Below are positions 7,542-45,242 of a DNA stretch of 56,640 nt, piece after piece (the stretch's first letter is position 1; every line of letters starts with the position of its first letter). Both the position numbers and the translations under genes were made by a program. The DNA lies in NCBI GenBank assembly GCA_043803745.1, contig JAZDJS010000036.1, positions 1 to 56,640 of the forward strand, in the 5' to 3' direction. The notes beneath the pieces are model-generated. The model had not been told where the DNA came from, did no database searches, and was given only the letters and a program-made list of their open reading frames with translations. The stretch is from an archaeon (GTDB lineage: Archaea > SpSt-1190 > DYHY01).

Positions 7542-7563
7542 GCTGAGGTATAGCGAAGCGGTT
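7542..7563 (+). repeat. Duplicated 5' fragment of the adjacent tRNA-Ser
   Basis: GCTGAGGTA[TA]GCGAAGCGGTT equals tRNA nt 1-20 plus a 2-nt insertion. It is followed by a 12-bp hairpin at 7576-7602. Confidence 0.7.
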
Positions 7564-7630
7564 GGCTTAGAAACCCTTTTCTCTTTTGCGAAAAGAGAAA
7601 AGCCTTTCACGGGAAAAGAGAAACACGTTT

Positions 7631-7637
7631 TTATAAA
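7631..7637 (+). promoter_or_regulatory. TATA box of tRNA-Ser
   Basis: TTATAAA starting 28 nt upstream of the tRNA 5' end. Confidence 0.65.
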
Positions 7638-7658
7638 CCCAAATTCCAATCTACTCGG

Positions 7659-7743
7659 GCTGAGGTAGCGAAGCGGTTAACGCGCCAGTCTGGAAAGCTG
7701 GTTTCCCGCAAGGGATGCATGGGTTCGAATCCCATCCTCAGCG
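7659..7743 (+). tRNA. tRNA-Ser (anticodon GGA)
   Basis: Acceptor stem GCTGAGG/CCTCAGC, discriminator G, anticodon arm CCAGT-CT-GGA-AA-GCTGG, long variable arm TCCC-GCAA-GGGA, T arm ATGGG-TTCGAAT-CCCAT; CCA not encoded. Confidence 0.97.
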
Positions 7744-7824
7744 CTCGCCTATTCCATTACACGTCACAAAAGGCTCGCGCTTCGGACTGAGAAATTTAAT
7801 AAACCTGGTCGGCTTCCTGCGCGG

Positions 7825-29158: not shown

Positions 29159-29647
29159 ATGGCGAAGCAAAAGGGACAGGGGCGAACAGCCCAAGCGTCC
29201 ACGGAGTATTTGATAATACTGGCAGTCGTCGTAATCGTCGCACTGGCAGTAGTCGGAGTGTTGGGGGGTTTCCCGACGGTATCCAAGGGAATCTCGGAAA
29301 AGGATTCGGCGACATACTGGCAGTCCGCGGATATCGGAATTGTCCGGTATTTCTCGAACTCGACCGGGACCTACGGGATTGTCAGGAACAACAAGAATTT
29401 TGCAATCTCAATAACCTCGGCAACGGCTCTATACAACGGCTTTGACGGTTCGTCAATCTCGCTTTCCCCAGGCGAAAGCACAACCGGATTCAAGATGATT
29501 TCGAACTCAACTGGCGCGATGTGCGCAACAGCCGGAACTGGTTCCTTCACAGTTGCAGTATCTGACCTTGGATTCGGCTACAGCGACCCGACCTACGGAA
29601 CAATCTACAACTTCACCGGGCTAAAGCCGCTGATTGGTTCCTGCTAG
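29159..29647 (+). CDS. Major pilin paralog 1 (class III signal peptide)
   Basis: RTA-QASTEYLIILAVVVIVALAVVGVLGGFP; ends GLKPLIGSC. Confidence 0.9.
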   Translation: MAKQKGQGRTAQASTEYLIILAVVVIVALAVVGVLGGFPTVSKGISEKDSATYWQSADIGIVRYFSNSTGTYGIVRNNKNFAISITSATALYNGFDGSSISLSPGESTTGFKMISNSTGAMCATAGTGSFTVAVSDLGFGYSDPTYGTIYNFTGLKPLIGSC

Positions 29648-30287: not shown

Positions 30288-30345
30288 ATTTCACTCAATC
30301 CAGTAAAAAGGATATATACTAAATAAGGGCTGTTTTTCCCCATGG
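30288..30345 (+). repeat. Duplicated pilin promoter block, copy 1
   Basis: 57 of 58 nt identical to 31774-31831; contains AAAAAGGATATATA (BRE/TATA-like). Confidence 0.9.
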
Positions 30346-30827
30346 AAAAACGCGCGCAGTCGTCAACGGAATATTTGGTTATCCTTGCGGTTGTGGTAAT
30401 AATCGCCCTCGCAGTGGTCGGGGTCCTTGGAGGATTCCCAACACTGACAAAAGGGGTATCGACGAAGGATTCGCTAGCATACTGGCAGTCGGGAGAGGTT
30501 GGGGTTGAAAAACCATATCTCTCAACCTCGACAAACTCCACGCTCGTCCTCCGGAACAACCAGAATTTCGGGATAACGATAACGGGGGTCTTTTTCAACA
30601 ACGCGCCTGCGCAAAACGGGACGAACTCGAACCTGCCCGCAACGCTTTCGCCCGGTCAGACTGTAACCGTCCTGATGACTGCGAACTCGACGAACCCCTG
30701 CATCGGAACGACTGCAGGTTCTGCGACGTTCTCCCCAATCGTGAAACTAACCTACTACGACACCTCGGCAAATGCGAACACATACCAGTTCACCGGAGCA
30801 AAGCCCCTCGTAGGAACGTGCCAGTAA
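30342..30827 (+). CDS. Major pilin paralog 2
   Basis: KRA-QSSTEYLVILAVVVIIALAVVGVLGGFP; ends GAKPLVGTCQ. Confidence 0.92.
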   Translation: MEKRAQSSTEYLVILAVVVIIALAVVGVLGGFPTLTKGVSTKDSLAYWQSGEVGVEKPYLSTSTNSTLVLRNNQNFGITITGVFFNNAPAQNGTNSNLPATLSPGQTVTVLMTANSTNPCIGTTAGSATFSPIVKLTYYDTSANANTYQFTGAKPLVGTCQ

Positions 30828-31080
30828 TAGGCTCGGGACTTCGCTGAGGCTCAGCCTTTGGTTGGTATCCAGCTTCTTAGCTGGACCTCGCTACCGTTCG
30901 GCCTGTCAGTAAATAGACCAACCAAAGATTTCGCCTGAGGGCTCAACCCTTAGTCAGCACGTGCCAGTAAGTCAACTGCCGACTACTGACCTCGTCCGGC
31001 TTCGGTCTTACTCGGCCGTTGGTTGGAACGATTCGCAGACCACCTTAGGCGGTCCGGCCGGTCCTCGGCTTGCCGGTATG
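30828..31080 (+). repeat. Array of recoded pilin 3'-end copies and hairpins (array A, 3 copies)
   Basis: Copies at 30849-30912 (34-nt insert), 30941-30970 (AQPLVSTCQ*) and 31010-31079 (40-nt insert, degenerate). Confidence 0.85.
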
Positions 31081-31124
31081 TCGCTACCATCAACCTCACT
31101 GCCTTCCCGCCTTTTTCTGAGCGC

Positions 31125-31700
31125 CTATCCTGGATATTCAAGCCCCGCATTCCTTTCGGCAATGTCAAGCCGCTCAAGGGCAAAGTGAGCGCCCAGGTTT
31201 GCAATCGGGTCTCCCGGAGCGAAGGAGAGCCTCACGAAATAAAGGTCTTTCTGGTTCCCTTCCCAGGCCCTGAGCCTGAGTGGAAGGCTGCCTTCGCCTT
31301 GGACCAGTTCAGTTTCCCCAAAGCCAATTGATTCCCGATATCCCCAGGCCGAGAAAGCGTCAACCAGAAGCGCCTCGACCTCCTCGACAGGCCCGTAATA
31401 GGCAAGGCTTATTTCGCGCAGCCTAAGCTCTTCGCCGATTTTCCCGAAAATTGCCGCAACATGTTCTTCTCTCTCCGGAATATCCTCAATCCGGTCGCTT
31501 TCCCTTGCGGTTGAAACATAGATGCAACCCGCGTATTCCTTATGGGGAGCGTCTCCCAATACAAACCCTTGCAGACAAGTCCCTTCCTTATATTTCGTCC
31601 TGACGTCCTTAGCCGAATCGTCAAGCAACAGGGTCGCCATTCCTTTCGCCCTTGCCAAAAACTTCCGGGAATCGGTTTTCCTGCTAGTAACAACTGTCAT
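31125..31700 (-). CDS. Hypothetical cytoplasmic protein (ORFan-like)
   Basis: Long ORF; ATG 31700 lies about 26-32 nt below a minus-strand TTTAAAA at 31732-31726 (the track uses GTG 31718). Confidence 0.7.
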   Translation of the reverse strand: MTVVTSRKTDSRKFLARAKGMATLLLDDSAKDVRTKYKEGTCLQGFVLGDAPHKEYAGCIYVSTARESDRIEDIPEREEHVAAIFGKIGEELRLREISLAYYGPVEEVEALLVDAFSAWGYRESIGFGETELVQGEGSLPLRLRAWEGNQKDLYFVRLSFAPGDPIANLGAHFALERLDIAERNAGLEYPG

Positions 31701-31773
31701 TGTCTTCTGGAGGACCACTTTGGAGTTTTAAACATATCTTCAATTTAACTGAAAATTTCCGTTTCGTCTCTAG

Positions 31774-31831
31774 ATTTCACTCAATCCAGTAAAAAGGATA
31801 TATACTAAATAACGGCTGTTTTTCCCCATGG
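31774..31831 (+). repeat. Duplicated pilin promoter block, copy 2
   Basis: 57 of 58 nt identical to 30288-30345. Confidence 0.9.
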
Positions 31832-32331
31832 CAAAGAGCAAAGGACAACAGTCCAGAGGACAATCGTCAACGGAATATTTGGTTATCCTTGCGGTTGTGG
31901 TAATAATCGCCCTCGCAGTGGTCGGGGTCCTTGGAGGATTCCCAACACTGACCAAAGGGGTATCGACGAAGGATTCGCTAGCATACTGGCAGTCCGGGGA
32001 TATTGGCATTGAGCGCCCATATCTCTCAACCTCGACAAACTCCACGCTCGTCCTCCGGAACAACCAGAATTTCGGGATAACGATAACAGGCGTATTTTTC
32101 AACAACGCGCCTGCGCAAAACGGGACGAACTCGAACCTGCCCGCAACGCTTTCGCCCGGTCAGACGGTTGCAGTCCTAGTAACTGCGAACGCAACAAACC
32201 CGTGCAACGGGGGAAGTTCCGGCTCATCAACGTTCTCCCCGAGCGTGAAAATAACCTACTATGACACTTCATCCTCAGGGAACACATACCAGTTCACCGG
32301 AGCAAAGCCCCTCGTAGGAACGTGTCAATAA
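31828..32331 (+). CDS. Major pilin paralog 3
   Basis: SRG-QSSTEYLVILAVV...; long blocks nearly identical in nucleotide sequence to paralog 2; ends GAKPLVGTCQ. Confidence 0.92.
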   Translation: MAKSKGQQSRGQSSTEYLVILAVVVIIALAVVGVLGGFPTLTKGVSTKDSLAYWQSGDIGIERPYLSTSTNSTLVLRNNQNFGITITGVFFNNAPAQNGTNSNLPATLSPGQTVAVLVTANATNPCNGGSSGSSTFSPSVKITYYDTSSSGNTYQFTGAKPLVGTCQ

Positions 32332-32666
32332 TAGGCTCGGGACTTCGCTGAAGCTCAGCCTTTAGTTGGAACCTGCCAATAATCTGTTTGCCGACTACTG
32401 ACCTCGCTGAGGCTCAGCCTTTGGTTGATATCCAGCTTCTCAGCTGGACTTCGCTACCGTTCAGCCTGCTAGTAATTAGGCCAACCAAAGATTTCTCCAG
32501 TGCCCGCGGTTAACCCGATTTCGGGTGCGGGCACGGACCCTCTGAGGAGGGGCCGAAGCTCAGCCTTTGGTTGGTACCTGTCAGTAAATAGACCAACCAA
32601 AGATTTCGCCTGAGGGCTCAACCCTTAGTCTGAATTGTCCGCAGACAACCTTCGGCCTGCCAATAA
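32332..32666 (+). repeat. Array of recoded pilin 3'-end copies and hairpins (array B, 4 copies)
   Basis: Copies at 32353-32382 (AQPLVGTCQ*), 32412-32475 (34-nt insert), 32558-32587 (AQPLVGTCQ*) and 32616-32666 (21-nt insert). Confidence 0.88.
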
Positions 32667-32694
32667 GTCAGCAGCCAGCTAAAGACCTGGCTGG

Positions 32695-32734
32695 GGGGCG
32701 CGTGCGAGAACGCGCCCCGAGTTTTTCCTTTTTT
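32695..32734 (+). terminator. GC-rich hairpin plus T tract closing array B
   Basis: GGGGCGCGT-GCGAGA-ACGCGCCCC followed by GAGTTTTTCCTTTTTT. Confidence 0.65.
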
Positions 32735-33296
32735 AATTGACCGCCCTGAAAAGCTTCTCGATTCTCTTGCATTCTTCCAGGTCAAGCGCCTCGAGAACCC
32801 CGTAAACAATCGGCTTCAAGTCACCCCTGCCGTCGTCCCCAGCAACTCCTGCAAACTCAAGTTCAAGGAACGCCGGACTGAACGGGAATTTGTCAATTTC
32901 TGCAATTGCAATTCCTTTGGAATATCTCCTTCTCTCAACATATTTGACATCACGCTCGAACCCCGTCCCGATTAGCGCGGCTTCAATATTGGCAAGCGAG
33001 TCCCCAAGTCTGACCTGTGCGTGTATCATGCGCCCGTCCGGAAAGGAATACTGGACGCGGTCGCCCCGTTTTCCTCCGGTGCGGATAATGAGATCAGTCG
33101 TTTTTCCGACAAGGTGTCCGGGGCGGACTGAAACGGCACCTTGGGATTGCGCGGGCGCAGTGTAATCAAAAGGCCGGTCGAAAACGAGGTCAAGTTCAGC
33201 TGGCTTTACGCCCTCTCCAGAATATACCGCCGCGCCCGTCCCGAACGCAAGCTCCGAAAACCCCAGCCCGAAATAGGCATCTGAAATCCCCTTCAT
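32733..33296 (-). CDS. Hypothetical cytoplasmic protein
   Basis: 187-aa ORF with minus-strand TTATAAA upstream. The C-terminal half (IEAAL...GF.....VERRRY...IDKFP....FLELE) is faintly reminiscent of CYTH-like proteins, unverified. Confidence 0.7.
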   Translation of the reverse strand: MKGISDAYFGLGFSELAFGTGAAVYSGEGVKPAELDLVFDRPFDYTAPAQSQGAVSVRPGHLVGKTTDLIIRTGGKRGDRVQYSFPDGRMIHAQVRLGDSLANIEAALIGTGFERDVKYVERRRYSKGIAIAEIDKFPFSPAFLELEFAGVAGDDGRGDLKPIVYGVLEALDLEECKRIEKLFRAVN

Positions 33297-33356
33297 TCAG
33301 CGCTCAGTTGTTCCCATTTTATAATAGCTCCCTTTTTTAAACCAAAAGCCGAGAAA

Positions 33357-33890
33357 ATGCCCGCCGTGACAGGACGAACTAAGAAACGGAATTACATTCT
33401 TTCTGCTGCTGAGAGGAATTTCAGGCCGGAGGAATATTACAAGAAGCTCCCTCTCAAGGAACTTGAAAGGGAGCTTGCGGCCGACTGGGTCCTGGCAAGC
33501 CTCCTTCCGGAAACTGTCCTTGTTCCTGCGACGGTCTTTTCGCAACTGACTGCGGAGCCGTTTTTCTCCCCGGACCTCCCGAACTATTCGAACATTGCGC
33601 ATTTCCACGTCTCTTTCGCAGTCGGGCAGGCTTGCGAGTTCCTTTCAGAACCGGGCGCCCGCCGTCTGTTCGCAGGAGCCTCTGCCGCGGTTTCAGGGGC
33701 AACCGAGGGACAGGATATTGCAACCGCATTCCCTGAAAAGCTCAACGACTCCCTGTTCGACGCGGCTGCCGATGTTTTCGGCTTCTATTTCGGGCTGAAA
33801 TACCAGGGAAAGGTTAACAGCCATTTCCGCAGCCTTGCCGGGAAATATTCCCGGGTATACCACGCGCCAGTCCTCGGAATGTGGAAATAA
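33357..33890 (+). CDS. Hypothetical protein
   Basis: 177-aa ORF divergent from the previous gene; TTTTAAA box upstream. Confidence 0.65.
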   Translation: MPAVTGRTKKRNYILSAAERNFRPEEYYKKLPLKELERELAADWVLASLLPETVLVPATVFSQLTAEPFFSPDLPNYSNIAHFHVSFAVGQACEFLSEPGARRLFAGASAAVSGATEGQDIATAFPEKLNDSLFDAAADVFGFYFGLKYQGKVNSHFRSLAGKYSRVYHAPVLGMWK

Positions 33891-33939
33891 TCCAAGATTC
33901 CGCGATTAAGTTAAATATTACAAAGCCGGAAACAGGGCT

Positions 33940-34410
33940 ATGACGAAGAAGCGCTCCCAAGCCTCAGTCGAATATCTCGTGATTCTTGCGGCAGTTGTGA
34001 TAATTTCCCTTGCAGTTGTAGGCGTCCTGACTGGTTTTCCCGCGCTTACCAGGGGGATTTCAACGAAGGAATCCCTTGCATACTGGCAGTCGGCAGACAT
34101 CGGGATTGAGAAGCCCTACATGAGCGTTTCAGCAACAGATGGAACAAGCACGGTCGTCCTCCGGAACAACCACAATTTCAACATCGTAGTCACCGACATA
34201 ACCTTCGGCGGGTCGGCTGTCGAGTACTCCGGCCTCCCGGCAACCCTGACGCCCGGCCAGACGAAAACCGTCGCCTTCGTTGCGCGGAACCCCTGTACAA
34301 CCCTGGGGAACACATATTCGATAAACGTCGCGGTGGTTTACCAGGATGCCTCGACAGGGAGCGCATACACCTTCTCCGGAACAAGGCCCCTTATCGGAAC
34401 CTGCCAATGA
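33940..34410 (+). CDS. Major pilin paralog 4
   Basis: KKRS-QASVEYLVILAAVVIISLAVVGVLTGFP; ends GTRPLIGTCQ. Confidence 0.9.
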   Translation: MTKKRSQASVEYLVILAAVVIISLAVVGVLTGFPALTRGISTKESLAYWQSADIGIEKPYMSVSATDGTSTVVLRNNHNFNIVVTDITFGGSAVEYSGLPATLTPGQTKTVAFVARNPCTTLGNTYSINVAVVYQDASTGSAYTFSGTRPLIGTCQ

Positions 34411-34475
34411 GAGGACGGGGGGCGGAAAAAGCAGTGGGTTTAAAAATATCGCAAGCGGGAGTTCCGCCTGCCGAT

Positions 34476-35588
34476 ATGGCCAAGACAATTGCGTTTTTCT
34501 CCGGAAAGGGCGGCGTTGGAAAGACCTTCCTTGCAACCTCCCTTGGCGCAGCCCTCGTTTCCGAATTCCGCAAGAGGGTCCTCCTTGTCGAGGGCAACCT
34601 TTCGAGCCCGGGGCTCGGGGTCTTCCTTAACATTGTAAAGCCTGCCGCGACAATCCAGGACGTTCTTTCGGGCGCGGTAACTCCGGAAAGGGCGGTTTTC
34701 CACCACGATAACGGGCTTGATGTCCTGCCCGGCGCGCTCTCAATTGGCAGGGAGGCCATTGATTTCTCAAGGCTTGGCGCGCTTTCCCCGGTTTTCCAGA
34801 ACTATGATTTCGTCATAATCGACGGAGCGGGGACGATAACCGATGGCGAGCTTAGTTTCGCAAGGATTTCGGATGAGGTTGTCGTTGTCGCAACCCCGGA
34901 CCTCCCGTCAGTCACCGGCGCAATGAAGCTTATCGGGACGCTGCAAGCCCAGGGGATTTTCGTCAGGGGGCTCGCAATTAACCGGATGCATCCCTCGGAC
35001 AAGAGGCACGAGCTCAAGGATTCTGAAATCGAAAGCTCGACAGGGCAGAGGGTTCTCCTGAAGCTTCCAGAGGATACTGCGGTTCCGCAAAGCACTGCCG
35101 CAAGAACGCCCGCAACGCTTTTCGCCCCGTTTTCCCCGGCAACGCTTGAAGTCAAGAATTTCGCAGCCGATTTTTCCGGGGTTCCGAGGCCTGAGAAACC
35201 ATCCCTTATGCAGAAGCTTTTCGGCGGAGGAAAGAGCGAGGTGAAACAAGCTTCCCCGATTTTGTCCCCGCATCTCGAGGGGATACGGAGCTCGGTTGTC
35301 TCTTCAGGAGTTCCTCCAGGGTCCCTAACGGGTTCCCCCCAGGTCCGCCCGGAAATTCAGAACCAACCTGTAAGCAAGCAAAGCCAGCCAATTCCGGCGC
35401 AGCCACAGGCGCAGCCACAGGCGCAGCCACAACAACCCGATGCTTCAGCCGGCTCTCCGGCAAGCCCCCCGGCAAGCCCCCCGGCAAGCCCGCAAAAATT
35501 AAAAGACGACTACATGCGGCAGTGGATGGAAGGGAAAATAACCCTTGACCAGATGATGGAAAAGATCAAGGAACTGGAGAAGAAATAG
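34476..35588 (+). CDS. MinD/ParA-family ATPase with Pro/Gln-rich linker and C-terminal SHOCT-like helix pair
   Basis: Deviant Walker A SGKGGVGKT, YDFVIIDG, VVATPDLPSVT, LAINR; ATG 34476 below TTTAAAAA. Confidence 0.9.
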   Translation: MAKTIAFFSGKGGVGKTFLATSLGAALVSEFRKRVLLVEGNLSSPGLGVFLNIVKPAATIQDVLSGAVTPERAVFHHDNGLDVLPGALSIGREAIDFSRLGALSPVFQNYDFVIIDGAGTITDGELSFARISDEVVVVATPDLPSVTGAMKLIGTLQAQGIFVRGLAINRMHPSDKRHELKDSEIESSTGQRVLLKLPEDTAVPQSTAARTPATLFAPFSPATLEVKNFAADFSGVPRPEKPSLMQKLFGGGKSEVKQASPILSPHLEGIRSSVVSSGVPPGSLTGSPQVRPEIQNQPVSKQSQPIPAQPQAQPQAQPQQPDASAGSPASPPASPPASPQKLKDDYMRQWMEGKITLDQMMEKIKELEKK

Positions 35589-35652
35589 TTCCGGATTCAT
35601 TCTAGTTAGCGAAGGAAAGAACAAAACAAACAATAAGGAGACGAAAAAGAAA

Positions 35653-36459
35653 ATGAGCGTAGGACTATACTGCAAATTCAGCGGAGGGGTTGTTGTTGTC
35701 AGCGACGGGTTCGAGTACAACCCGAAGACCTGGGAGAAGAGGACCGATTCGACAAAGTTCTTCATCTTCAAGAAGCCGTTCGGACAGGGCGTCCTGATAT
35801 GCACGGGGAACCCGGAGCTTTCCAAACGCGCGCTTGCGGAGGCGGACTCCGTCGAGGAGATGACCCTCCTTGATTTCGCAAAGGGCTGCGCGGATTTCCT
35901 CAGGAAGGAAGCCGACCGGGTCACTAGCCACCCGAGGGAAACCGAGAAAATGCTCGAGCAGACCCCGATGCTCATTGCCGGCTATGACAGGACAACGGAA
36001 TCGTTCCCGTCCCACCAGATTTCCCGCGGCTACCACACCGAGCTCAAGGGAGCTGATTTCTTCTCAATCGGGATTGGCGCCAACTATGCCTTTTCCGGGA
36101 AGCTGAAGAAGCAGCCGGAATCCCTTGAGGAAGCAATACAGAGCGCGCTCCTCGCATATGCGAACTCCCTGAAAATCCGGGGAGTTGAAGGCTATCCGAG
36201 GATGCAGATTGTCGGAACTGACGAGGTGACAACGCTTGACGCGCCGACATGCACGTTCCTGGGGAACCTTGCGGTGCTGGACCTCCTCACAGGAAGCAAC
36301 TTCCTGAAGACGGAAGTAGAGATAATGCCCGCATCCGAGAAGCAGGTTTCTCCGGCAGTCGTTGAGAAGCTCAAGGAAATCGGGATGAGCCCGTCAATAC
36401 TCTTCAAGACCCAGATGACGGTAAGCACCTGGCAGGAGATTCTGGGACCGAAGGCCTGA
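35653..36459 (+). CDS. Divergent proteasome-beta-like (Ntn-hydrolase fold) protein
   Basis: M-SVGLYCKFSGGVVVVSD start, MLIAGYD, FFSIGIGANYA and SLEEAIQSAL parallel the beta-subunit motifs. Confidence 0.6.
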   Translation: MSVGLYCKFSGGVVVVSDGFEYNPKTWEKRTDSTKFFIFKKPFGQGVLICTGNPELSKRALAEADSVEEMTLLDFAKGCADFLRKEADRVTSHPRETEKMLEQTPMLIAGYDRTTESFPSHQISRGYHTELKGADFFSIGIGANYAFSGKLKKQPESLEEAIQSALLAYANSLKIRGVEGYPRMQIVGTDEVTTLDAPTCTFLGNLAVLDLLTGSNFLKTEVEIMPASEKQVSPAVVEKLKEIGMSPSILFKTQMTVSTWQEILGPKA

Positions 36460-36523
36460 ACCGACTTTCCAAAGCCACGGCGTCCGAAGGAATTATAAGC
36501 AGGTCAAAAATCAAGCGGCCACT

Positions 36524-37273
36524 ATGGAAGGGATAACTTCCCCGGAGCTTGCGAAATATTTCGGGGATGAATACAGATTCCTGCTTTTCAAGGCTTCCGC
36601 GGATTTCCCCGAGTTCGGAAGGCAAGGCGGGCTTGCGCACCCCCTTTCGGGGGAGCAGTTCGAGGCGACTTTTTATCCAATCGCATCCGCCCTTTCCCCC
36701 CTTAGCCTAGTTCCGGCAAAGACCTTTTCAGATTTGTGGGCTCTCTCGGAATTCGCTCCGTTCCTGAACGGTTCAGCCCAGGCAGCATTTGCAAAGGTTG
36801 CTTCGGAAGCGTTCCTCTCGGGGATTTCCGGATTCTCCCAGGAAGACGTTTCGGAAATCCAGGCGAGGGTCCTTGCGGCGGAATCAATGTATTCTTCAAT
36901 AGAGGATGCCCGCGCCCTTTTTGCCGGAAAATATTGCGAGGAGGGCGCTGGAGGCGCCGACGCCCTGGCCGCATTTTCAGATGCATATGACGCCCTGATT
37001 TTCGAGATTCCCAATTACATTCTTCCTGCTTCCGCCCCGAAGCCGCTTCCGGCGGCCGAGGACTTCAATTTGACAGTCAGGGGGCTTGTTGATTTCTCCG
37101 GGGAAAGCTTTCACTTCCCTTTCACCGGGGAGAAGATAGTCGAGACAATAAGGGATTTGGAAGAGGCAAAAACAAGCGTCTACGAACAGCTAATTGTCCT
37201 TGGCGGGGATGTCTGCTCGGCAGCTTTTCAGGCTGCGAAAATCTACTACCAGGTCAAGGGCGCGGGTTGCTAG
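36524..37273 (+). CDS. Hypothetical helical protein (possible distant paralog of the 40232-42572 trio)
   Basis: 249-aa ORF with TTATAA upstream. Confidence 0.75.
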   Translation: MEGITSPELAKYFGDEYRFLLFKASADFPEFGRQGGLAHPLSGEQFEATFYPIASALSPLSLVPAKTFSDLWALSEFAPFLNGSAQAAFAKVASEAFLSGISGFSQEDVSEIQARVLAAESMYSSIEDARALFAGKYCEEGAGGADALAAFSDAYDALIFEIPNYILPASAPKPLPAAEDFNLTVRGLVDFSGESFHFPFTGEKIVETIRDLEEAKTSVYEQLIVLGGDVCSAAFQAAKIYYQVKGAGC

Positions 37274-37581
37274 TCCAAATCAGAATTCCGAGTAACCTGG
37301 TGCTGCCTGGAAATCCCGAGCAGGAACAGGAGCGCAAAGACAAGATATGCCGCCTCCGGTTCATATGTCAGGATAGCCTCGGTGCCCGGAAGCTTCCAGG
37401 CTTCCAGAAGGGTGAATGCCTGCGCAATTGCGAAAACAACTGCAGCCGCAATCAGGAACCGCCAGGAAACCTCAGTGTTCTCGTTCTTCACCCTGATTAG
37501 CATCAAGACCGCTATTACCGCCGAAGCAAGCCCGAGCGCAAGGCTTGCCCCCTGTAGAACCGCTTCAACTGAAATCGCCAT
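37270..37581 (-). CDS. Small integral membrane protein (about 3 TM helices)
   Basis: ATG 37581; 103 aa, almost entirely hydrophobic helices. Confidence 0.75.
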   Translation of the reverse strand: MAISVEAVLQGASLALGLASAVIAVLMLIRVKNENTEVSWRFLIAAAVVFAIAQAFTLLEAWKLPGTEAILTYEPEAAYLVFALLFLLGISRQHQVTRNSDLD

Positions 37582-37636
37582 GTTCCCCCTGCGGTACCAA
37601 TTCTTTTTATATTTCACTCTATTTCGTAACACCAAC

Positions 37637-40201
37637 GTGGAAGAAACTGGCAATAATCCTGAAGAAGCTCTCAAAGACGCTTTTATTGTCCTTTCCAAGG
37701 CAAGGCAATCCGCAATGGAGGAGCTTTCCCTTGCCCAGCGGGTCCGGGAAGCCCTTGAGCAGAAGGTTTCCGAGGCAAAGGCGCGCGCCGAAAGCGCAAC
37801 CCGCGCAAAGGAATATCTTGAGCGCTCCTTTTCCGATTTGGAGGCGAAAATCGGGGAGCGGAAGGACGACTTTTCCCGCCTCTCGACGCTTTCGGAATCA
37901 CTTGCAAGCAACCTGCAGAAGGTGGTTGCCTACCTGGAACGCCTGCATTCCGAGGTCGACGGCGCCCGGAACGACTATTCCCGGAAGAGGGGAGAGGTCG
38001 AGGATCTGAAAAAGGAGGTTGAGGGGCTTTCCGCGCGCATCGCCGTTGTGCAGGATGCAATCGGGACTTCCTCGGGGGAATTCGGCGAGAAAGTCGCATT
38101 CTTCCAGGCTGAAAGTGCGAAAATCTCTGAAGCGCTCCGGAACTTCCAGGCGAAAATGGAGTCGGCAAGGCTGGCTTCCTCGGAAATAGAAAAGGCAGCT
38201 CAGACGGTTGAATCAATCGCAAGCCAGAGGAAAGCAGAAATCTCCGAAATCGTCAATTCATTCAATTCCGAATCCAGGTCGATGAGGGAGCTTGCGGAAA
38301 AGGTCTTCTCCCAGGTCGACCAGGCGAAGCATTCCCTTTCGGAGAACTCCGTTGAAACCGCAAAAATCAAGGATTTCGTTGACAGGACTGCCCCGGAAAT
38401 CCAGGACAGGCTTTCCAAGGTGGAGCTCCTGCGGGAGCAGATTGAAGCGAAGAGAAGCGCGCTCAGCGAAATGGTTTCATCAGGGGACCTCGCCCTTTCA
38501 AAGGCGGATTCAAAAATCGCGGAAATCTCCCGCCAGAAGGACTCCCTTTTCTCCGAGTTCGACAAGCTGCGCCTCGTCGTTGAGGAGCGGCTTTCCGAGG
38601 CTGCCAAGCACAAGGCGAAGGTGGACACGCTCTCCTCTGCAATCTCCCGGATACCCGAGTTCGAGAAGACATATGCGGGGATTGAGGGGAAGATTTCCGA
38701 AGCCGAGGAGAAGCTCGTCGAGTTCAAGCGGACCGAATCAGCGCTTTCGGTAAAGTTCTCGGAGGCCAGCGGGCTTCTTTCCTCCCTCGAGGGGCGGCTT
38801 GCCTCATCGGATGACAAGGTTTCAAAAATGAAGAACGCAGCCCTCCAGGTCGAGTCCGAGGTTTCCCTTGCAAGGCAATCCCTCGAGGGCGCGACAACTT
38901 CGCTATTCTCCCTCAAAAGCTCAATTGACAGCTTTTCCGAAAGATTCTCCTCCTTGAAGAAAGCCCAGGAGGGGATTGACTCCGAATTCTCCCGCCTTGC
39001 GCTCGACCTCTCGGAAAAGCGCGCGGCATACCAGAAAATGGCAAGCGAGCTTTCCCGCTCCTTTGACGAGGATTCGAAACGGAAAGTCGACCTTGTCCAG
39101 GAGTATGAGCGGAAGCTTTCGGCAATAACCGATGCAATTGAACGGGCTGTCCGGAAGGGGAGCGAGCTCCAGGGGGATTCCGAAGCGCTTGTTTCCGAGC
39201 TCACGTCCCAGGCTGAGAAAATGCGGCTTGCCTCCCGGGAGTCCGAAAAGGCGCGGAGCGATCTCGTTTCTTTCGGCGCGGAAGTCACCCAGAAAACGGC
39301 CGAAATTTCCCGGAAAGTGGACGCCCTTTCAGCAAGGGAGCCGGAAATAAAGCTCAAGATATCGACGTTCGCCAACCTCGACGAAGCGGTTTCCGAAAGG
39401 GTTGCTGCCGCGAAGAAAAGGGATTCCGAAATACAGGAGCTTGAGCGGAAGGTCCATTCGGTCTCCGAAAGAACAGAGGCGACCCTGAAGAAGGTTTCCG
39501 AAAACCTCAGTTCATCCGATTCCGCAAAAAGCGCCCTTGCCGAAGAAACAGAATCCGCACGGGATGCCGTAAAGGAAGCGAAGGAAAAGCGCGAGGAGCT
39601 TGAGGCGCTTTCCGGAAAGGTTTCCGAGGTTCTTGAGAAGGAGGACGAGATTTCCCGGATTGACGAGAAGATTTCCGGAAAGCTCGCGGAAATAGAGGAC
39701 AAGCTTGCAAAAATCTCCGCAGTTGAGACAATACTCGAGAGAAAAGTTTCGGAGGTCGATGCCCTGAAGAAGATATTCGATGAGAAGCTGAACTTTTCGC
39801 CGTCGGGAATGAGGGGCGCGCCAGTGCAGTCAGTACAGAGGGACTCCCCGAGGGACCCCCCGAGGGACTCCCAGAGGGACCCCCAGAGGAGCCCCACACA
39901 CGCCGAAGCCCTTTCAGACAGGTCAGGAGAGCTTCTTGCCCAGGTCCAGGATCTTGAGGGGCTGAAGAAGGAACGGAAGGAGCTTTCTGAACTCCTCCTC
40001 CTGCTTTCCGCCCAGCGGGAAGAGGGGCTTGTTTCGGACGGCCATTTCGAGGAAATCTCAACCCAAACACGGGCAAGGCTCCGGGAAATAGAGCGGAAGA
40101 TAACCGAAACCCTTGAGCTTGAAGGGCATCTTGAGCGGCATGAGGAGGAGATAGGAAAAATAAAGTCCCTCCTGAAGAAGCAGAAGGCTTACTATCGGTA
40201 G
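37637..40201 (+). CDS. Long coiled-coil protein (about 854 aa)
   Basis: Continuous E/K/S/A/L heptad-rich sequence with no Walker motifs; GTG start 37637 below TTTATAT (about 37606-37612), shared with the divergent gene. Confidence 0.85.
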   Translation: MEETGNNPEEALKDAFIVLSKARQSAMEELSLAQRVREALEQKVSEAKARAESATRAKEYLERSFSDLEAKIGERKDDFSRLSTLSESLASNLQKVVAYLERLHSEVDGARNDYSRKRGEVEDLKKEVEGLSARIAVVQDAIGTSSGEFGEKVAFFQAESAKISEALRNFQAKMESARLASSEIEKAAQTVESIASQRKAEISEIVNSFNSESRSMRELAEKVFSQVDQAKHSLSENSVETAKIKDFVDRTAPEIQDRLSKVELLREQIEAKRSALSEMVSSGDLALSKADSKIAEISRQKDSLFSEFDKLRLVVEERLSEAAKHKAKVDTLSSAISRIPEFEKTYAGIEGKISEAEEKLVEFKRTESALSVKFSEASGLLSSLEGRLASSDDKVSKMKNAALQVESEVSLARQSLEGATTSLFSLKSSIDSFSERFSSLKKAQEGIDSEFSRLALDLSEKRAAYQKMASELSRSFDEDSKRKVDLVQEYERKLSAITDAIERAVRKGSELQGDSEALVSELTSQAEKMRLASRESEKARSDLVSFGAEVTQKTAEISRKVDALSAREPEIKLKISTFANLDEAVSERVAAAKKRDSEIQELERKVHSVSERTEATLKKVSENLSSSDSAKSALAEETESARDAVKEAKEKREELEALSGKVSEVLEKEDEISRIDEKISGKLAEIEDKLAKISAVETILERKVSEVDALKKIFDEKLNFSPSGMRGAPVQSVQRDSPRDPPRDSQRDPQRSPTHAEALSDRSGELLAQVQDLEGLKKERKELSELLLLLSAQREEGLVSDGHFEEISTQTRARLREIERKITETLELEGHLERHEEEIGKIKSLLKKQKAYYR

Positions 40202-40231
40202 ATTTTTAAGCGGAATATTAACTATTCTCAA

Positions 40232-40996
40232 GTGGATTCCCGAAAATACACCGAACTTGAAGAGCTATTCGAAGAATTGCGGGACGCGGACATCCTGCAA
40301 ACGGTCTACAACGTGAGAGCTTCCAGCAACGATCAGGGCGGCCTGCCGCAAGCAATTGCTGCATTCAAGGAAGAGCTTGCGGAACTTCCCGCGCCAAATC
40401 CCTTTGGAATTCTTGCGTATGCGGTTTCCGGGATTTCACCGGAAATTCCAGCCTGTCAGTTTTTCCAGGAAATCGTTGTCTTGGACTATCTTGCGGGAGA
40501 ATTGGACGCGATAAAGTCGGGAGAGACAGGCCAGACCGGCTTCACTGAAGAGGAGCTCGAAGGGCTTTATGCGCTTTTCATTGAGAATGGAGTGGCCCTA
40601 GAGCGCTTAAGGGAGCTTGGCTCAGATCCGTCAACCCCTTCTGGCGCTTACACTTCCTGCTTTTCCAATCGTCTCGATTCCTTGCATTCGGAAATCTTGG
40701 GCGCATATGCATTTCCCGAGCAGCAGGATATTTACCTTGCAGCGGCAGGGAAAAGCGCCGAGCAAATTTTCGGATATGTCCAAGAGATCGAAGGTCGCGT
40801 GGACGCGAGCGCACCCAAGTTGAACATCCTTCGGGAATTGGCCGAAAAAACAGTTTCCGATCTGGCTGGAAAAACCGGACTTGCCTGGCGGGCTCTCCAA
40901 AAGGCTGCCGGGAAAATAGGAACCGCGGAAATCCTTTCCGCATATGACGCGCTTGCGCAGCTCGGATATTTCGAAAAGGAGGCTGCCGCGATTTAG
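40232..40996 (+). CDS. Hypothetical helical protein, paralog A
   Basis: MDSRKYTELEELF..., LDYLAGE, GFTEEELEGLY, LSAYDALA. Confidence 0.8.
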   Translation: MDSRKYTELEELFEELRDADILQTVYNVRASSNDQGGLPQAIAAFKEELAELPAPNPFGILAYAVSGISPEIPACQFFQEIVVLDYLAGELDAIKSGETGQTGFTEEELEGLYALFIENGVALERLRELGSDPSTPSGAYTSCFSNRLDSLHSEILGAYAFPEQQDIYLAAAGKSAEQIFGYVQEIEGRVDASAPKLNILRELAEKTVSDLAGKTGLAWRALQKAAGKIGTAEILSAYDALAQLGYFEKEAAAI

Positions 40997-41000
40997 AAAA

Positions 41001-41765
41001 ATGGATTCCAAGAGATACCAAGAACTGGAAAACTTTTTCGGGAGAGCCAGGGACGACTATCTCTTCCTGATGCAGGGGGTTTTCGAGGAGTTCCCAGAAG
41101 AGAAAATCCAGGCGATTTCCGAAACGCGCCTCCGCCTTGAAATCGCTCCGGAAATAAGCGTCCCGACTGCCCTTGCGGCGGGAGTTCTCGGTTCCGTAGG
41201 GACAATTGACGCTGCAGAGGCTTTCAAGCAAGCCCTTCTTTTCGATTTCCTTGCAGGGGAGACTGAGGCTGCAAGAGAGGGCAAGAGCTCATTGAGTTCC
41301 GGGATAACTGAAGAGGAGTTCGACGGGCTTTACGCAATCTATCCCGAGAACTATTCCCTGATGAACCCGAACACCGTTGCAAAGCCGAACCCCGAAAGCC
41401 CGATTGGCGCGTGCCTTGTCTGCTTCTTCCAAACCCTTGACACTATCAGGCAGGCGGTTTTTAACTCAACGCTCTACCCTGCCGAAGTTTCCCAAACATA
41501 CAATTACCTTGCCGAGAGGACACGCCCGCTGGCCCTTGAGCTTGCGGGGGAGGTTGTTTCAGCCGCAAGGAAGGAGAACGCCGGCGCGCTCTACGGATTC
41601 AGGGAAACTGCCGAGAAATTCATCGGGAACCTCATTGATGGCGCGGAACCCGCCCTCCGCGCGCTTGGCAAAGCTGCCGCAGTTTCCGGAGAAGCATCCC
41701 TTCTTGACGCCTATGATGCGTTTGCTCCCCAATATCTTGCGCCAGCCAAAGGGGAGGTTCTCTAG
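41001..41765 (+). CDS. Hypothetical helical protein, paralog B
   Basis: MDSKRYQELENFF..., FDFLAGE, GITEEEFDGLY, LDAYDAFA; ATG 41001. Confidence 0.8.
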   Translation: MDSKRYQELENFFGRARDDYLFLMQGVFEEFPEEKIQAISETRLRLEIAPEISVPTALAAGVLGSVGTIDAAEAFKQALLFDFLAGETEAAREGKSSLSSGITEEEFDGLYAIYPENYSLMNPNTVAKPNPESPIGACLVCFFQTLDTIRQAVFNSTLYPAEVSQTYNYLAERTRPLALELAGEVVSAARKENAGALYGFRETAEKFIGNLIDGAEPALRALGKAAAVSGEASLLDAYDAFAPQYLAPAKGEVL

Positions 41766-41771
41766 CCGGAA

Positions 41772-42572
41772 ATGGGCACCCCTTCTGAAACGGATTACAA
41801 AGAACTCCTCGGGAAATTCGAACAGCTGAGGACCTGCACCCTTTCCGAGGATAGAGATTATTTCGCGCATCTTTCTCTCCCGGAAACAATGAACGCGATC
41901 AATTTCATAGAAGCTCAGCTTGGGAAGCCGAACGCCTCCCTGAAAATTGCCCCATTCGAACGAGTCTTTTCCATCAGCAACGTCCGAATCTCCCCAAGGA
42001 CAAGATTCGAGGAACTGTATCTCTGGGACCGTCTCTGCTGCGATGCCGAAGCAAGGCTTCATGCCGGCAGCCCTCCGACAACCGCCCTTTCCGCCGAGGA
42101 ATATTCGGCGCTCGTCCCTCTACTTGTCAAGGATGCCCAGATTCCGCTTGTCGCGCGGCAGGTTTTGAAGAGTGCCCCGGAAACCGAAGGTGCCCTCAAC
42201 GCATATGCGATTTCCTTCCACGACCTTTGCAATTTCTTCGTTCTTTCAACAGTGCTGGGAGAATGCAGCGAAAGCGATGCGGTGAGGGAAGCATACGGGA
42301 AATCCGCCATGGCAGCGGTCGGAGCAGTTGGAAAAGCCGCAGCCTTTCTTGAGGATGAGGGCTGCGAACGCGGTCATGCCTATCTTGCCTGCTTCGGCAG
42401 GCGGGCGGAAAGTTTCTGCAGCGAACTGCCCGCAAATGTCAGGGCAGCCATCCCCATCTTCAGCGGGCTCGTCTCCACGACAAATCTCGCAGACCTAAAG
42501 GCGGCATATGCGGGATATTCCCGCGAGCTTATGCAGAATTTCCTGAAGGGTCCTGCACAGGGAAACAGATAA
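41772..42572 (+). CDS. Hypothetical helical protein, paralog C
   Basis: DYKELLGKFEQLR, LWDRLCCD, LSAEEYSAL, LKAAYAGY. Confidence 0.78.
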   Translation: MGTPSETDYKELLGKFEQLRTCTLSEDRDYFAHLSLPETMNAINFIEAQLGKPNASLKIAPFERVFSISNVRISPRTRFEELYLWDRLCCDAEARLHAGSPPTTALSAEEYSALVPLLVKDAQIPLVARQVLKSAPETEGALNAYAISFHDLCNFFVLSTVLGECSESDAVREAYGKSAMAAVGAVGKAAAFLEDEGCERGHAYLACFGRRAESFCSELPANVRAAIPIFSGLVSTTNLADLKAAYAGYSRELMQNFLKGPAQGNR

Positions 42573-42597
42573 ATCCCCGGAACGCGCCTCCCTCGCC

Positions 42598-44952
42598 GTG
42601 GCTGAGCAAAACCCCCCGGCGCCATTTTTCATAATCCCCCCGGTCAGGATCTGCGACTTCCCGGACGTGCGCCTGCTTGCGCCATTCGTTGCCGCCGACT
42701 TCTTCTCCCGGATTTTCGGCGGGCAGGCCGTTTGCGCGACAATCTCGGACTGTCCCGAGGCAACTGCCGCGTTCAATTCAATCAGGGAGGCGCGCTTCCC
42801 CGTCCGCGAGAAATTCTCAAAAGAGGCCCTTCCGGACGATTTGCCCCTGATTGATTCAATGGAAAAATTTTCCAAGTATTTCCTTGGTAAGCTTGAGGAC
42901 GCGCTCACCCAGCTTTCGGCTTCCTCCTGCTCGCGCGTCAGTTCCGAAAGCCCCCTCGGGAAATCGGTTGCCGAGTATTTCCTCAGGGAAACTCGCCTGG
43001 CCGGGATTTCCGCCGAGGGGAAACCTTTCCAGCCATTCTGTCCGGAGTGCGAGGTCTTCCTCCCGTCCTTCGGAAAAATCTCCCGGAAGTTTTTCGCCCT
43101 TTTCCAGACCGGAGAATTCCATCTGGCAGTCGGTTTGGAAAAGCCGGAGGAGCTCTTTTCAGCATCCGCAATTTCAGTTGACCCGGAAAGCTTCCTTGAA
43201 ATTTCAGGCAAAATTCTCTCCGCGAAAGGGGACTTTCCAGGAAGCTTTTCGAGGAGTCCCGCCGCAGATTTCGTCGGGGCATCAGCCAAAAACCCCCTCA
43301 CCGAAGAGTTCGTCCCGATCCTTCCGGGGGAAAAACTGGGGATAGTCTCCCCGGGAACCCGGGAAAGCGACCTAAAGTTCCTGAAAAACTTCCCGGAGGA
43401 AACCGCGAGCAAGTGGGACCTTTCCCGGAAAAAGCTTGAGGAAATCCAGGTAAAATTCCCGGTGCGCGCAGGTCTCTTCACCGAAGCTTGCGGTTCCTTT
43501 TTCGGCTTTCCGGTCGAGGACGGGCGGCGGGCAATCCTTGCGGAGATTTCCAAACGGGGCGCGCTATTGGAGGTTCCTAAGGCCTCCGGAAAATGCTTTT
43601 GTGGGTGCGCGCTAGTCCCGAGGGAAACTACCGGGGACTTTTTCCTCCCGAGCAATTCAAGAATTCAGGAGAAACCCCAGGCATACCTTGGAAGGGAAAA
43701 TGCGCATTTCACGTTCCAGGCAATAGCCTCTGAAAGACTCTCCACCCAAATCCTTCCGCTCTTCTCCGGATTCCCCGAGGCGAAAAACCCGGAAGCATAC
43801 AGCTATCTTTTGGGGAACGAGAAAAACTTCAATCTTGTCTGGAAAGGGTCCGGCTATTCCCGCGAGGAGCTTCTTTCAGCCGGAAAAATTGTTTCGGACC
43901 GCTTCAGCCATGCAACGCTTGTCTGCCGGAGCTTCCGGGAAGCCCAGGAATTCTTCCTTGCCTCGCTAGCCTTCGAGCCGCTCGGAAGGATTCCCGACAT
44001 TTTTCAAATAAGCTCCCGGGCGGGATCGGGGCCCGCACCGGGGCCCGCACTCGCCTTTTCGGCAGCCCTGAGAAGCGGCCTTGCCGAGGAAATCCGGCTT
44101 GCGATACTCACCGGCAACCTTAATCCGGATGAGAAAGCCCTTCTCAGGCTGAAGAGGACAATCTCGAAATTCAAGCTTGAAGCGCTCCGGATCTCAAGCC
44201 TTCCGGAAGCTGCTACTGAGCGCAGACGCGGAGTCCTCTCCGCGGCATATTCCCGGAGGAAAGTCGATTTTCTTTCGGCAGCCGGGAGGCGCAGCATTCC
44301 CGAGGCAGTTTCCCAGGCGTTCCTCTTCCTTTCGGATTTCCGGGAGTTCGCGCGGTCCAACGGACAGAAATCCGAAGGGCTGGAAGTTTTCCGGAGTTTT
44401 GCGAAGGAAATCCTTGCGCCCCTGCTTCCAAAAACCTCCGAGGAAATACTCTCGAACCTCCGGGATATTGTCATAACTTCTCCCGAGCCCGATTCAATCG
44501 GGCCAAGCGAGGAAAAGCCGGAACAACTCGAGAAAATCCTCCTTTCCCGTGAAATCGTCGAAACGCTCCTTTCCGACTCAAGGAAGCTCGTTGAGCTTGC
44601 GGGAAAACCGAAGGAAATGAAGATTTACCTTGCCGAGGAGTGGAAATACCGGCTTTTCAGGAACATTTTCGAGTTCGGGGTGAAGCCCGGTCCAAACGAT
44701 CCGATTTTCCAAAGACTAGGAGTCAGCTTGCGGCCCGAAGAGCTTGAAAAATTCCTGCTTACCTTGAGGAAAACTCGATTTGACCGGGAGTTCCTTTCCC
44801 TTGACGAGGAGGCGCGCGCGATTTCAGGCGCAATTTCCCTCATTTCAGCGGAAACCGGGGTGAAAACAGTCCAGGTTCTTGTCAACCGGGAAATCCCATT
44901 CGAGAAAATGCTCCGAGCACGCCCGGGCAAGCCGGCAATCTTTTTTGACTGA
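42598..44952 (+). CDS. Degenerate leucyl-tRNA synthetase-like protein (no recognisable HIGH or KMSKS)
   Basis: Collinear remnants of archaeal LeuRS: FCPEC, KPEELF....VDPE, G.SAKNPLT.E.VPILP, CFCG, PEAYSYLLG, LAPLLPKTSEEI, KIYLAEEWK, ARPGKPAIFF. Confidence 0.75.
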   Translation: MAEQNPPAPFFIIPPVRICDFPDVRLLAPFVAADFFSRIFGGQAVCATISDCPEATAAFNSIREARFPVREKFSKEALPDDLPLIDSMEKFSKYFLGKLEDALTQLSASSCSRVSSESPLGKSVAEYFLRETRLAGISAEGKPFQPFCPECEVFLPSFGKISRKFFALFQTGEFHLAVGLEKPEELFSASAISVDPESFLEISGKILSAKGDFPGSFSRSPAADFVGASAKNPLTEEFVPILPGEKLGIVSPGTRESDLKFLKNFPEETASKWDLSRKKLEEIQVKFPVRAGLFTEACGSFFGFPVEDGRRAILAEISKRGALLEVPKASGKCFCGCALVPRETTGDFFLPSNSRIQEKPQAYLGRENAHFTFQAIASERLSTQILPLFSGFPEAKNPEAYSYLLGNEKNFNLVWKGSGYSREELLSAGKIVSDRFSHATLVCRSFREAQEFFLASLAFEPLGRIPDIFQISSRAGSGPAPGPALAFSAALRSGLAEEIRLAILTGNLNPDEKALLRLKRTISKFKLEALRISSLPEAATERRRGVLSAAYSRRKVDFLSAAGRRSIPEAVSQAFLFLSDFREFARSNGQKSEGLEVFRSFAKEILAPLLPKTSEEILSNLRDIVITSPEPDSIGPSEEKPEQLEKILLSREIVETLLSDSRKLVELAGKPKEMKIYLAEEWKYRLFRNIFEFGVKPGPNDPIFQRLGVSLRPEELEKFLLTLRKTRFDREFLSLDEEARAISGAISLISAETGVKTVQVLVNREIPFEKMLRARPGKPAIFFD

Positions 44953-45121
44953 ATGGAAGGCACAAACGTGCCGGCAGTCTGGAGCCAAAAGAGGGTAGGA
45001 AAACGGAAGGCAAGCCCGCAATTTTCTTCAAATGAACCCTTTGCAAAAGGCTTCACCCAAAGCGCCCCGTCTTCGCTTGAAAACTCGACAGGGCAAGCCC
45101 GCAATTTTCTTCAAGTTCTGA
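44926..45121 (+). repeat. Three copies of the GKPAIFF-coding gene end at an 83-nt period
   Basis: Copies start at 44926 (gene), 45009 and 45092; the latter two share an identical 23-mer GGCAAGCCCGCAATTTTCTTCAA. Confidence 0.88.
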
Positions 45122-45242
45122 GTTCCGAATCCACTGAAACTAATGACAAACTTTAAAAGGAGCCTCGGGGAAAAAAATCCACGGGGTATGTGGTGGTTTG
45201 GGGTTAGAACTCTCAACCAGAGATAGAAAGACTCAAAGGAAA

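Follow-up and report, generated by a model that had tools for sequence, protein, structure and literature searches.

The stretch of DNA analyzed here (the window) is one entire contig of 56,640 nt (JAZDJS010000036.1) from an archaeal genome of 1.23 Mb that is distributed over 51 contigs and is 90% complete (GCA_043803745.1; hereafter G000). Three protein-coding genes of two unrelated types on this contig are followed by stranded copies of their own 3' ends, and a tRNA-Ser gene is preceded by a stranded copy of its own 5' end (Table 1). Two of the protein-coding genes belong to a group of four tandem paralogues of about 160 amino acids each (50-54% identity to paralogue 1). These appear to encode archaeal pilin-like proteins of a DPANN archaeon, since one paralogue (33940-34410) gives a weak match to the class III signal peptide family that lies under the Pfam cut-off, and since relatives of the four proteins carry Micrarchaeota protein names. 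A PDB search with the protein P0001 gave no match. The third gene is a 784-aa open reading frame (ORF) that, over its last 214 residues (570-783), gives a match to the archaeal leucine-tRNA ligase (LeuRS) C-terminal domain, far under the family cut-off. In pilin genes 2 and 3 and in the LeuRS-like gene, the duplicated ends comprise the last 8-13 codons plus the stop codon.

Pilin genes 2 and 3 both terminate with FTGAKPLVGTCQ and a stop codon, and two or three copies of this end are found within 300 nt 3' of each gene. In its last 10 codons (32353-32382), the first copy behind pilin gene 3 differs from the gene end by six synonymous and one non-synonymous codon changes. Two of the five pilin end copies are split by an insert of about 36 nt, which in the first copy behind pilin gene 2 follows the triplet GGT and carries a small hairpin of its own. 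The arrays behind the two genes share an identical stretch (32577-32630 equals 30902-30955). A look for public sequencing runs that cover 30300-32800 turned up none. The initial annotation of this contig had described end copies behind three protein genes of two unrelated types and a mirror-image, 5' version at a tRNA. Both observations stand, the latter at a tRNA-Ser gene that lies outside the interval the annotation had given. It had also described the spacers between the copies as hairpins or motifs. Those of the pilin genes fold better than shuffled sequences (z of -2.2 to -4.9), and inverted partial copies form their stems; the two spacers of the LeuRS-like ORF fold no better than shuffles (z of -1.0 and +1.0).

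Table 1. Genes, stranded end copies and inserts in the window (stop, stop codon).
Feature	Position (nt)	Strand	Remarks
tRNA-Ser (GGA)	7659-7744	+	
tRNA-Ser, stranded 5' copy (first ~21 nt)	7543-7566	+	Behind old TATA-like box, a box that is conserved in sister genome G001
Insert in front of tRNA-Ser	7570-7658	+	T/A-armed hairpin, then TTTCACGGGAAAAG (module H), then second TATA-like box
Pilin-like paralogue 1	29159-29647	+	Ends ..FTGLKPLIGSC-stop; clear downstream copy absent
Pilin-like gene 2	30342-30827	+	Functional end 30789-30827; assigned to class III signal peptide family through its paralogues
Pilin gene 2, copy 1	30837-30878	+	DFAEAQPLVG.., in frame with gene; interrupted
Inverted partial copy	30917-30939	+	Pairs with 30844-30866 to give a long hairpin, z -2.65
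Pilin gene 2, copy 2	30932-30970	+	..AQPLVSTCQ-stop, out of frame
Pilin-like gene 3	31828-32331	+	Functional end 32293-32331
Pilin gene 3, copy 1	32344-32382	+	FAEAQPLVGTCQ-stop, in frame; 72% nt identity to gene end
Pilin gene 3, copy 2	32400-32441	+	DLAEAQPLVD.., interrupted; 90% identity to module 30837-30935
Pilin gene 3, copy 3	32549-32587	+	GAEAQPLVGTCQ-stop; then inverted partial copy 32592-32614, z -4.9
Pilin-like paralogue 4	33940-34410	+	End overlaps next gene; without copy
784-aa LeuRS-like ORF	42598-44952	+	Ends GKPAIFFD-stop; functional end 44926-44952
LeuRS-like ORF, copy 1	45009-45035	+	GKPAIFFK-stop; 4 synonymous, 1-2 non-synonymous codon changes
LeuRS-like ORF, copy 2	45092-45121	+	GKPAIFFKF-stop; 23 nt identical to copy at 45009

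We scanned the whole of G000 for such copies by matching the last eight residues plus the stop of each gene to all three frames of a 500-nt downstream region, with at least 7 matches out of 9 as the threshold. From the 1254 non-overlapping ORFs called (cut-off of at least 80 aa), 1247 were usable; five shuffled pairings (6235 comparisons) and the reverse complement served as controls. Twelve of these ORFs reached the threshold, compared with a single match in the five shuffles together and none on the reverse complement. A second, frame-blind scan with the last 30 nt of each gene (at least 21 of 30 positions) recovered 13 genes and none in five shuffles, and a looser BLOSUM-based scan added about five weaker candidates. 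The excess over chance within the genome is strong. The affected genes are housekeeping genes without relation to each other and encode aIF2-beta, SepF, the thermosome, deoxyhypusine synthase, RNase J, a T2SSE-type ATPase, an ArsR/S-layer-like protein and the pilins, along with three proteins without an assigned family.

The sister genome of the same genus (G001; 1,136,343 nt, scanned entirely) contains 6 cases among 1156 ORFs, with none in five shuffles. These include orthologues of the ATPase, aIF2-beta, thermosome and two other G000 cases, and the events differ between the two genomes: most G001 copies are exact at the DNA level, and the same genes may carry diverged copies in G000. Copies behind the aIF2-beta, SepF and pilin genes are also present in a genome from another genus of the same family (G003), and the end of aIF2-beta is duplicated in all three genomes. 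A metagenome search for close relatives of aIF2-beta yielded matches of at most 50% identity only; in the set of distant loci, of which 22 were examined (one without downstream sequence; one fragment left out), exact end copies are present in 2 of 21. Three 400-kb samples served as controls. Those from two unrelated archaea gave one case in 398 ORFs, an exact copy (G019), and none in 362 (G028), while that from an archaeon of the same order as G000, which lacks the S element described below (G004), gave one clear case and one low-complexity match in 373. In the thermosome orthologues of G001-G003 (loci L046-L048), one or two in-frame TGA codons were reported in protein-search matches; they are probably located in the N-terminal extension of a long ORF call.

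The anatomy of recent events is that of inserts or tandem units placed between exact direct repeats of 18-68 nt. An 87-nt insert between 43-nt repeats (contig C11 of G000), a 72-nt insert between repeats of 42-43 nt (aIF2-beta of G001) and an insert of about 110 nt between 31-nt repeats (C9 of G001) represent the smaller ones. The larger ones are two cassettes of G000, one of 1.08 kb between repeats of 66 nt (C33) and one of about 1 kb between repeats of 27-33 nt (C50). Each cassette comprises two genes, the second of which encodes a nucleotidyltransferase (NTP_transf_2); the first ORFs gave no Pfam or NCBIfam match, so that a HEPN label considered for them is unconfirmed and a HEPN/MNT pair is a guess. 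At C11, C33, G001 aIF2-beta and G001 C9, the sequence that follows copy 1 is not repeated after copy 2, which identifies these events as insertions and not as simple tandem duplications. Simple tandem units, in which the post-stop sequence is repeated as well, are found at the thermosome gene, the C50 terminators and G001 C7b, C13 and C10. Three clean tandem arrays in G001, with units of 61, 67 and 78 nt in three copies each, span the stop codon. Tandem repeats between genes, with periods from 44 to 150 nt, are numerous in G000, a compact genome in which about 9% of the sequence lies outside called ORFs. The ATGA overlap at which the next gene begins is contained in the stranded deoxyhypusine synthase copy (locus L019; C18:8326-9414), so that this duplication kept the stop of one gene together with the start of the next. 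A high-copy family of spacers was considered and dismissed: an all-against-all blastn of 658 intergenic stretches produced only 150 cross-hits and no large family. The short motifs ATCTGGAG and GTTCACGG showed no enrichment downstream of genes.

At several loci, a conserved sequence of about 53 nt, which we designate S, is positioned just upstream of the stranded copy; it consists of a G-rich conserved stretch followed by one long interrupted hairpin. With a covariance model, S was detected in 7 of 61 genomes in 2-12 copies each, namely in all four genomes of the family (2, 10, 2 and 3 copies) and in three distant families (12, 3 and 5 copies), and in none of 13 further genomes that belong to the same order or class. 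An exact-pattern scan found S in 22 archaeal stretches from metagenome-assembled genomes (MAGs) that represent five named DPANN groups (by record title: Micrarchaeota, 12; unlabelled archaeon, 4; Nanoarchaeia, 2; Altiarchaeota, 2; Aenigmatarchaeota, 1; Iainarchaeum, 1). The same scan gave two chance-like bacterial stretches and did not find S in viral contigs. Direct repeats of 14-66 nt (score of at least 14) flank 28 of the 58 S copies versus 7 of 464 positions drawn at random from these sequences. The right-hand repeat begins at the 3' end of S, the only side that is sharply bounded, and the repeats vary in sequence and length between the copies, with many different targets. Ends of tRNA genes (3') are among them, and in a MAG of the Altiarchaeota, S is found between the end of the GMP-synthase gene (guaA) and a 66-nt copy of that end.

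No recurrent protein is encoded next to S in the 22 loci, and a search of Rfam gave no match to S but only tRNAs at E values of 1 or less on three loci, two of which contain S. S as a functional RNA is not shown: RNAalifold predicts one long hairpin, in which 2 of 12 pairs covary. Two individual S copies bear on neighboring coding sequences. At locus L143 of G000 (C1:14778-15513, minus strand), an ORF reads through into S and stops inside it, which adds about 10 residues, and a native-looking end (..RFRFALR-stop) is stranded behind S. At C4:51071-52130 of G001, an S insert removes a C-terminal tail, rich in P-Q-G repeats, that is kept by the orthologue in G000 (C30:~6420-6800); S can hence truncate dispensable tails.

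The insert in front of the tRNA-Ser gene contains a different module, H, a T/A-armed hairpin with a short conserved tail, about 11 occurrences of which were recognized in G000 by our reading. Over 55 nt, this insert is 91% identical to a non-orthologous site in G001. The old promoter region of the tRNA-Ser gene is conserved between the two genomes, and the orthologous gene in G001 carries, instead of H, an S element in opposite orientation together with its own TATA-like box; this S sits after the first 8-9 nt of a stranded tRNA start. The presence of different inserts at the 5' end of the same tRNA gene in sister species argues for recurrent insertion and not for one inherited scar. For a tRNA gene on contig 42, a degenerate 3'-end copy is found past a terminator-like palindrome. 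Several of the exact intergenic tandem repeats of G000 with periods of 44-111 nt (C50:1-230, C14:7069-7240, C21:52591-52770 and 74725-74870, C19:1-120) contain the H module or tRNA-like 5' fragments.

The gene ends and copies of the frame-blind set differ at 88 positions, of which 18, 18 and 52 are codon positions 1, 2 and 3, respectively. This third-position share exceeds one third (p = 1e-6) and also the 45% that we ourselves estimate for a dead copy drifting beside a constrained gene (p = 0.005). The bias is carried by a subset of the pairs (aIF2-beta, SepF, the ArsR-like gene, the pilins and the LeuRS-like gene), with what looks like plain decay in the others. The recoded pairs include switches between the serine codons TCA and AGC and between the arginine codons AGA and CGC, and they diverge about as much as orthologues of G000 and G001 do. 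At the same time, each copy and its gene have lineage-specific residues in common (V/Q in aIF2-beta, A/S in the ATPase), a combination for which duplication in place followed by drift does not easily account. At SepF, gene and copy are identical over 35 nt and then differ at 8 positions within 19 nt, seven of them synonymous third positions and one in the stop codon (TAG/TGA); in this divergent stretch the copy resembles the SepF gene end of G001. Exactly this pattern would result if an occupied allele and an empty one underwent unequal exchange, and we infer from these comparisons that one of the two ends was probably exchanged with a diverged allele by homologous recombination.

Order and polarity are less regular than had been proposed. 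Ten loci have at least two downstream copies; in seven of them the first copy is the most similar to the gene end and in one it is tied, with the ArsR-like gene and RNase J as clear exceptions. Similarity to the gene end declines weakly from copy to copy (Spearman -0.39, p = 0.07; 22 copies). Older copies do decay, as exemplified by KTQRAVRDIV-stop, RTTVRAVA followed by two stops, and LVAPMAGLWRA-stop. Of the 14 best copies, 3 keep the frame of their gene, as expected by chance. Measured against the gene ends of G001, the downstream copy is nearer at three of nine loci (SepF, aIF2-beta, pilin) and the functional end at the other six. The synonymous recoding noted by the initial annotation is borne out in a larger sample as an excess at third positions, but it characterizes a subset of the pairs and not those that look simply decayed; support for an ordered series of scars is weak, and the rule of a new functional end with the older one displaced downstream does not apply generally.

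With respect to other features of the window, an ORF of more than 3814 aa (45198-56639, plus strand) lies directly after the copies of the LeuRS-like gene end and runs off the end of the contig; it contains an internal repeat of about 750 nt (51092-52448). A 939-aa ORF (37382-40201) holds a 12-nt tandem repeat, GAGGGAC[TC]CCCC with variants, at 39838-39897.

The account that we favor, and to which we give roughly an even chance, invokes insertions with long, variable target duplications, together with tandem duplications, in a compact genome, followed by a survivorship filter and then by allelic exchange. Small insertions and tandem duplications would recur at gene termini, each of them directly duplicating some 8-68 nt of the target. 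Since the genome is compact, only those events that leave one complete terminus on the gene would survive, and the other copy would be stranded as a non-coding relic. This relic would lie downstream for protein-coding genes and tRNA 3' ends, and upstream for the tRNA 5' end, where the insert would bring in a new TATA-like box. The inserted material would comprise S (a hairpin of about 53 nt), H (a terminator-like hairpin), the two nucleotidyltransferase cassettes of about 1 kb, and unit-length tandem repeats. In the synonymously recoded subset, the two copies would be of different ancestry, one of them having been exchanged with a diverged relative through the duplicated terminus as a homology arm, which would explain the SepF pattern. 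This account builds on what is directly observed: duplications that exceed chance and recur in relatives, repeats flanking S, and a bias towards third positions. A more specific proposal, which we advance tentatively and regard as possible but rather doubtful, is that S, and perhaps H, is an undescribed non-autonomous mobile element of DPANN archaea. It would insert at the ends of transcription units, duplicate 14-66 nt of the target so that the neighboring gene or tRNA stays whole, move by an RNA-mediated or break-repair route (which its sharp 3' end, variable 5' side and duplications of variable length would fit) with an enzyme supplied in trans by a host, a virus or a plasmid, and spread between related lineages with the stranded ends as homology arms, thereby generating the recoded pairs.

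Several observations weigh against the account that we favor. No inserting enzyme was found in a search that covered PF00589, PF07282 and PF01867 in the 90% complete G000 and PF00078 in G000, G001 and G003, where one sub-threshold match was the exception. Thirty of the 58 S copies have no detectable flanking repeat, and S is absent from the spacers of the window itself. The excess of end copies over other archaea is modest (Fisher p = 0.023 for G000; p = 0.06 for G000 plus G001). A donor allele for the recoding was not found: the FAEAQ.. ending is absent from the 49 pilin relatives checked as donors, all of which retain the G of F-x-G. Finally, the serine and arginine codon switches and the shared lineage-specific residues could mean that the copies are under selection.

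One alternative, which we judge unlikely, views the loci as decayed site-specific integrative elements: an integrase-encoding element would enter a gene or tRNA gene at its 3' end, supply its own version of that end and later be mostly deleted, leaving two att copies and a short arm (S). The tRNA 3' ends and the guaA end among the S repeats would be expected from such a history, as would the constant abutment of S on the right-hand repeat, the location of both cassettes between exact gene-end copies, and the downstream SepF, aIF2-beta and pilin copies that are nearer to the G001 gene end; the mobile ORFs of fungal mitochondria with their displaced native C-terminus (PMC3630166) provide a printed analogue. 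However, tyrosine recombinases (PF00589), which are present in all 14 control genomes, gave no match in G000, the 90% complete genome that this search covered; their absence would mean that there is no Xer-type recombinase. A single element family with many targets and repeats of 14-66 nt, the lack of a recurrent protein beside S, the failure to find S in viral contigs, and the functional ends that are nearer to those of G001 at six loci likewise argue against integrative elements, and no pair of gene end and copy was found to enclose one of full size. Slightly less probable in our view is that replication slippage or template switching acted alone, with stalling at terminator hairpins producing tandem and inverted duplications of 40-150-nt units, of which those spanning a stop codon would be harmless and would then drift. 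The clean arrays across stop codons in G001, the intergenic tandem repeats of G000, the post-stop sequence included in the thermosome and C50 copies, the inverted partial copies that form the stems of the pilin spacer hairpins, and the exact copy in one unrelated control genome are all in line with slippage. It leaves unexplained the inter-repeat sequences that are not repeated after copy 2 (C11, C33, G001 aIF2-beta, G001 C9), the defined 3' boundary of S and its patchy distribution over several lineages, and a third-position excess that surpasses the prediction for drifting dead copies.

That the copies are functional, be it as translated back-up ends, as regulatory sequences for the neighboring gene or as substrates for diversification or recording, we hold to be very improbable, even though the synonymous excess, the lineage-specific residues common to copy and gene, the duplication of the aIF2-beta end in three genomes and in distant metagenome loci, and the ATGA start overlap within the deoxyhypusine synthase copy could be read in this way. 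Opposed to a function are the random frames, on account of which read-through and back-up ends were rejected, the loss of residues and stops from older copies, and the finding that copies of the same gene are exact in one genome and diverged in its sister. A diversity-generating retroelement (DGR) was rejected because a reverse transcriptase (PF00078) was found neither in G000 nor in G003, with one sub-threshold match of 15.5 bits in G001, and because the differences are not confined to the adenines of one copy; where the two aIF2-beta sequences disagree, one copy has T, C, G and A and its counterpart G, C and T. CRISPR-like recording was rejected since Cas1 (PF01867) had no match in G000; TnpB of the IS200-605 type (PF07282) had none in this genome either. 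In summary, the unifying hypothesis of the initial annotation is right in that one process acts on gene termini, and its examples extend beyond the contig to the rest of G000, to G001 and G003 and to distant aIF2-beta loci. The remainder of that hypothesis, a dedicated, site-specific, order-keeping or diversifying system, is wrong or unproven. A site-specific element is at odds with the many different targets of S, and templated diversification or recording with the failure to find a reverse transcriptase or Cas1, the non-adenine differences and the decay of older copies. The evidence does not support a system dedicated to replacement or recording.

In DPANN genomes, gene-end copies of this kind may be taken wrongly for diversification systems, for split genes or for errors of assembly. 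They are frequent, affecting about 1 gene in 100, they recur at the same conserved genes across genera, and they are tied to at least one conserved small element, S, which we consider the part most worth following. Should S be mobile with target duplications of tens of bases, it would add a gene-sparing mode of insertion for very compact genomes, and the stranded ends would serve to date both insertions and the exchange of alleles among uncultured lineages. Should slippage and drift be responsible instead, the copies would amount to a useful annotation caveat, and no more.

We found nothing on gene-end copies in DPANN archaea in the open literature, which is no proof of absence; several known systems nonetheless invite comparison. 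Integrative elements such as phage 21 and e14 in icd target the 3' end of a gene and rebuild that end, and archaeal integrative elements target tRNA genes and leave arrays of tRNA fragments. The direct repeats described here likewise include the 3' end of the target gene (tRNA 3' ends, guaA), but neither an integrase nor a full element was found, and S occupies many sites with repeats of variable length. DGRs and CRISPR adaptation also place a repeat of a gene end or unit beside a hairpin in an ordered-looking array, from which the present loci differ by non-adenine differences, irregular spacing and decaying copies, and by the lack of a detected reverse transcriptase or Cas1. With MITEs (miniature transposable elements with inverted repeats), S shares its short, non-coding, multi-copy, palindromic and patchy nature. 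The target duplications of MITEs measure 2-10 bp (PMC11602168), whereas those of S are variable, span 14-66 nt and are sharply bounded on the 3' side only. S is largely one hairpin, no protein recurs beside it, and no partner transposase was found in a search that covered TnpB.

The closest parallel is provided by the fungal mitochondrial ORFs for mobile endonucleases, which duplicate the C-termini of atp6, atp9, cox2 and nad3; there, a LAGLIDADG or GIY-YIG ORF of about 1 kb lies between the two ends, 50-280 nt are duplicated, and a horizontal origin was inferred (PMC3630166). The mitochondrial gene works through the inserted end and the native end is displaced downstream, with similar protein and diverged DNA sequences, an arrangement that the DPANN loci may share in part. 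The latter differ in having spacers of 12-150 nt that are free of ORFs except for the two nucleotidyltransferase cassettes, duplications of 8-68 nt, no homing endonuclease ORF between the ends, and a downstream copy that looks native at only 3 of 9 loci. A replacement gene end brought along by an insert is an established idea for the mitochondrial mobile ORFs; what sets the present loci apart from known cases is that the inserts are tiny and no enzyme gene was found, and that they combine many targets with long, variable duplications and mixed polarity.

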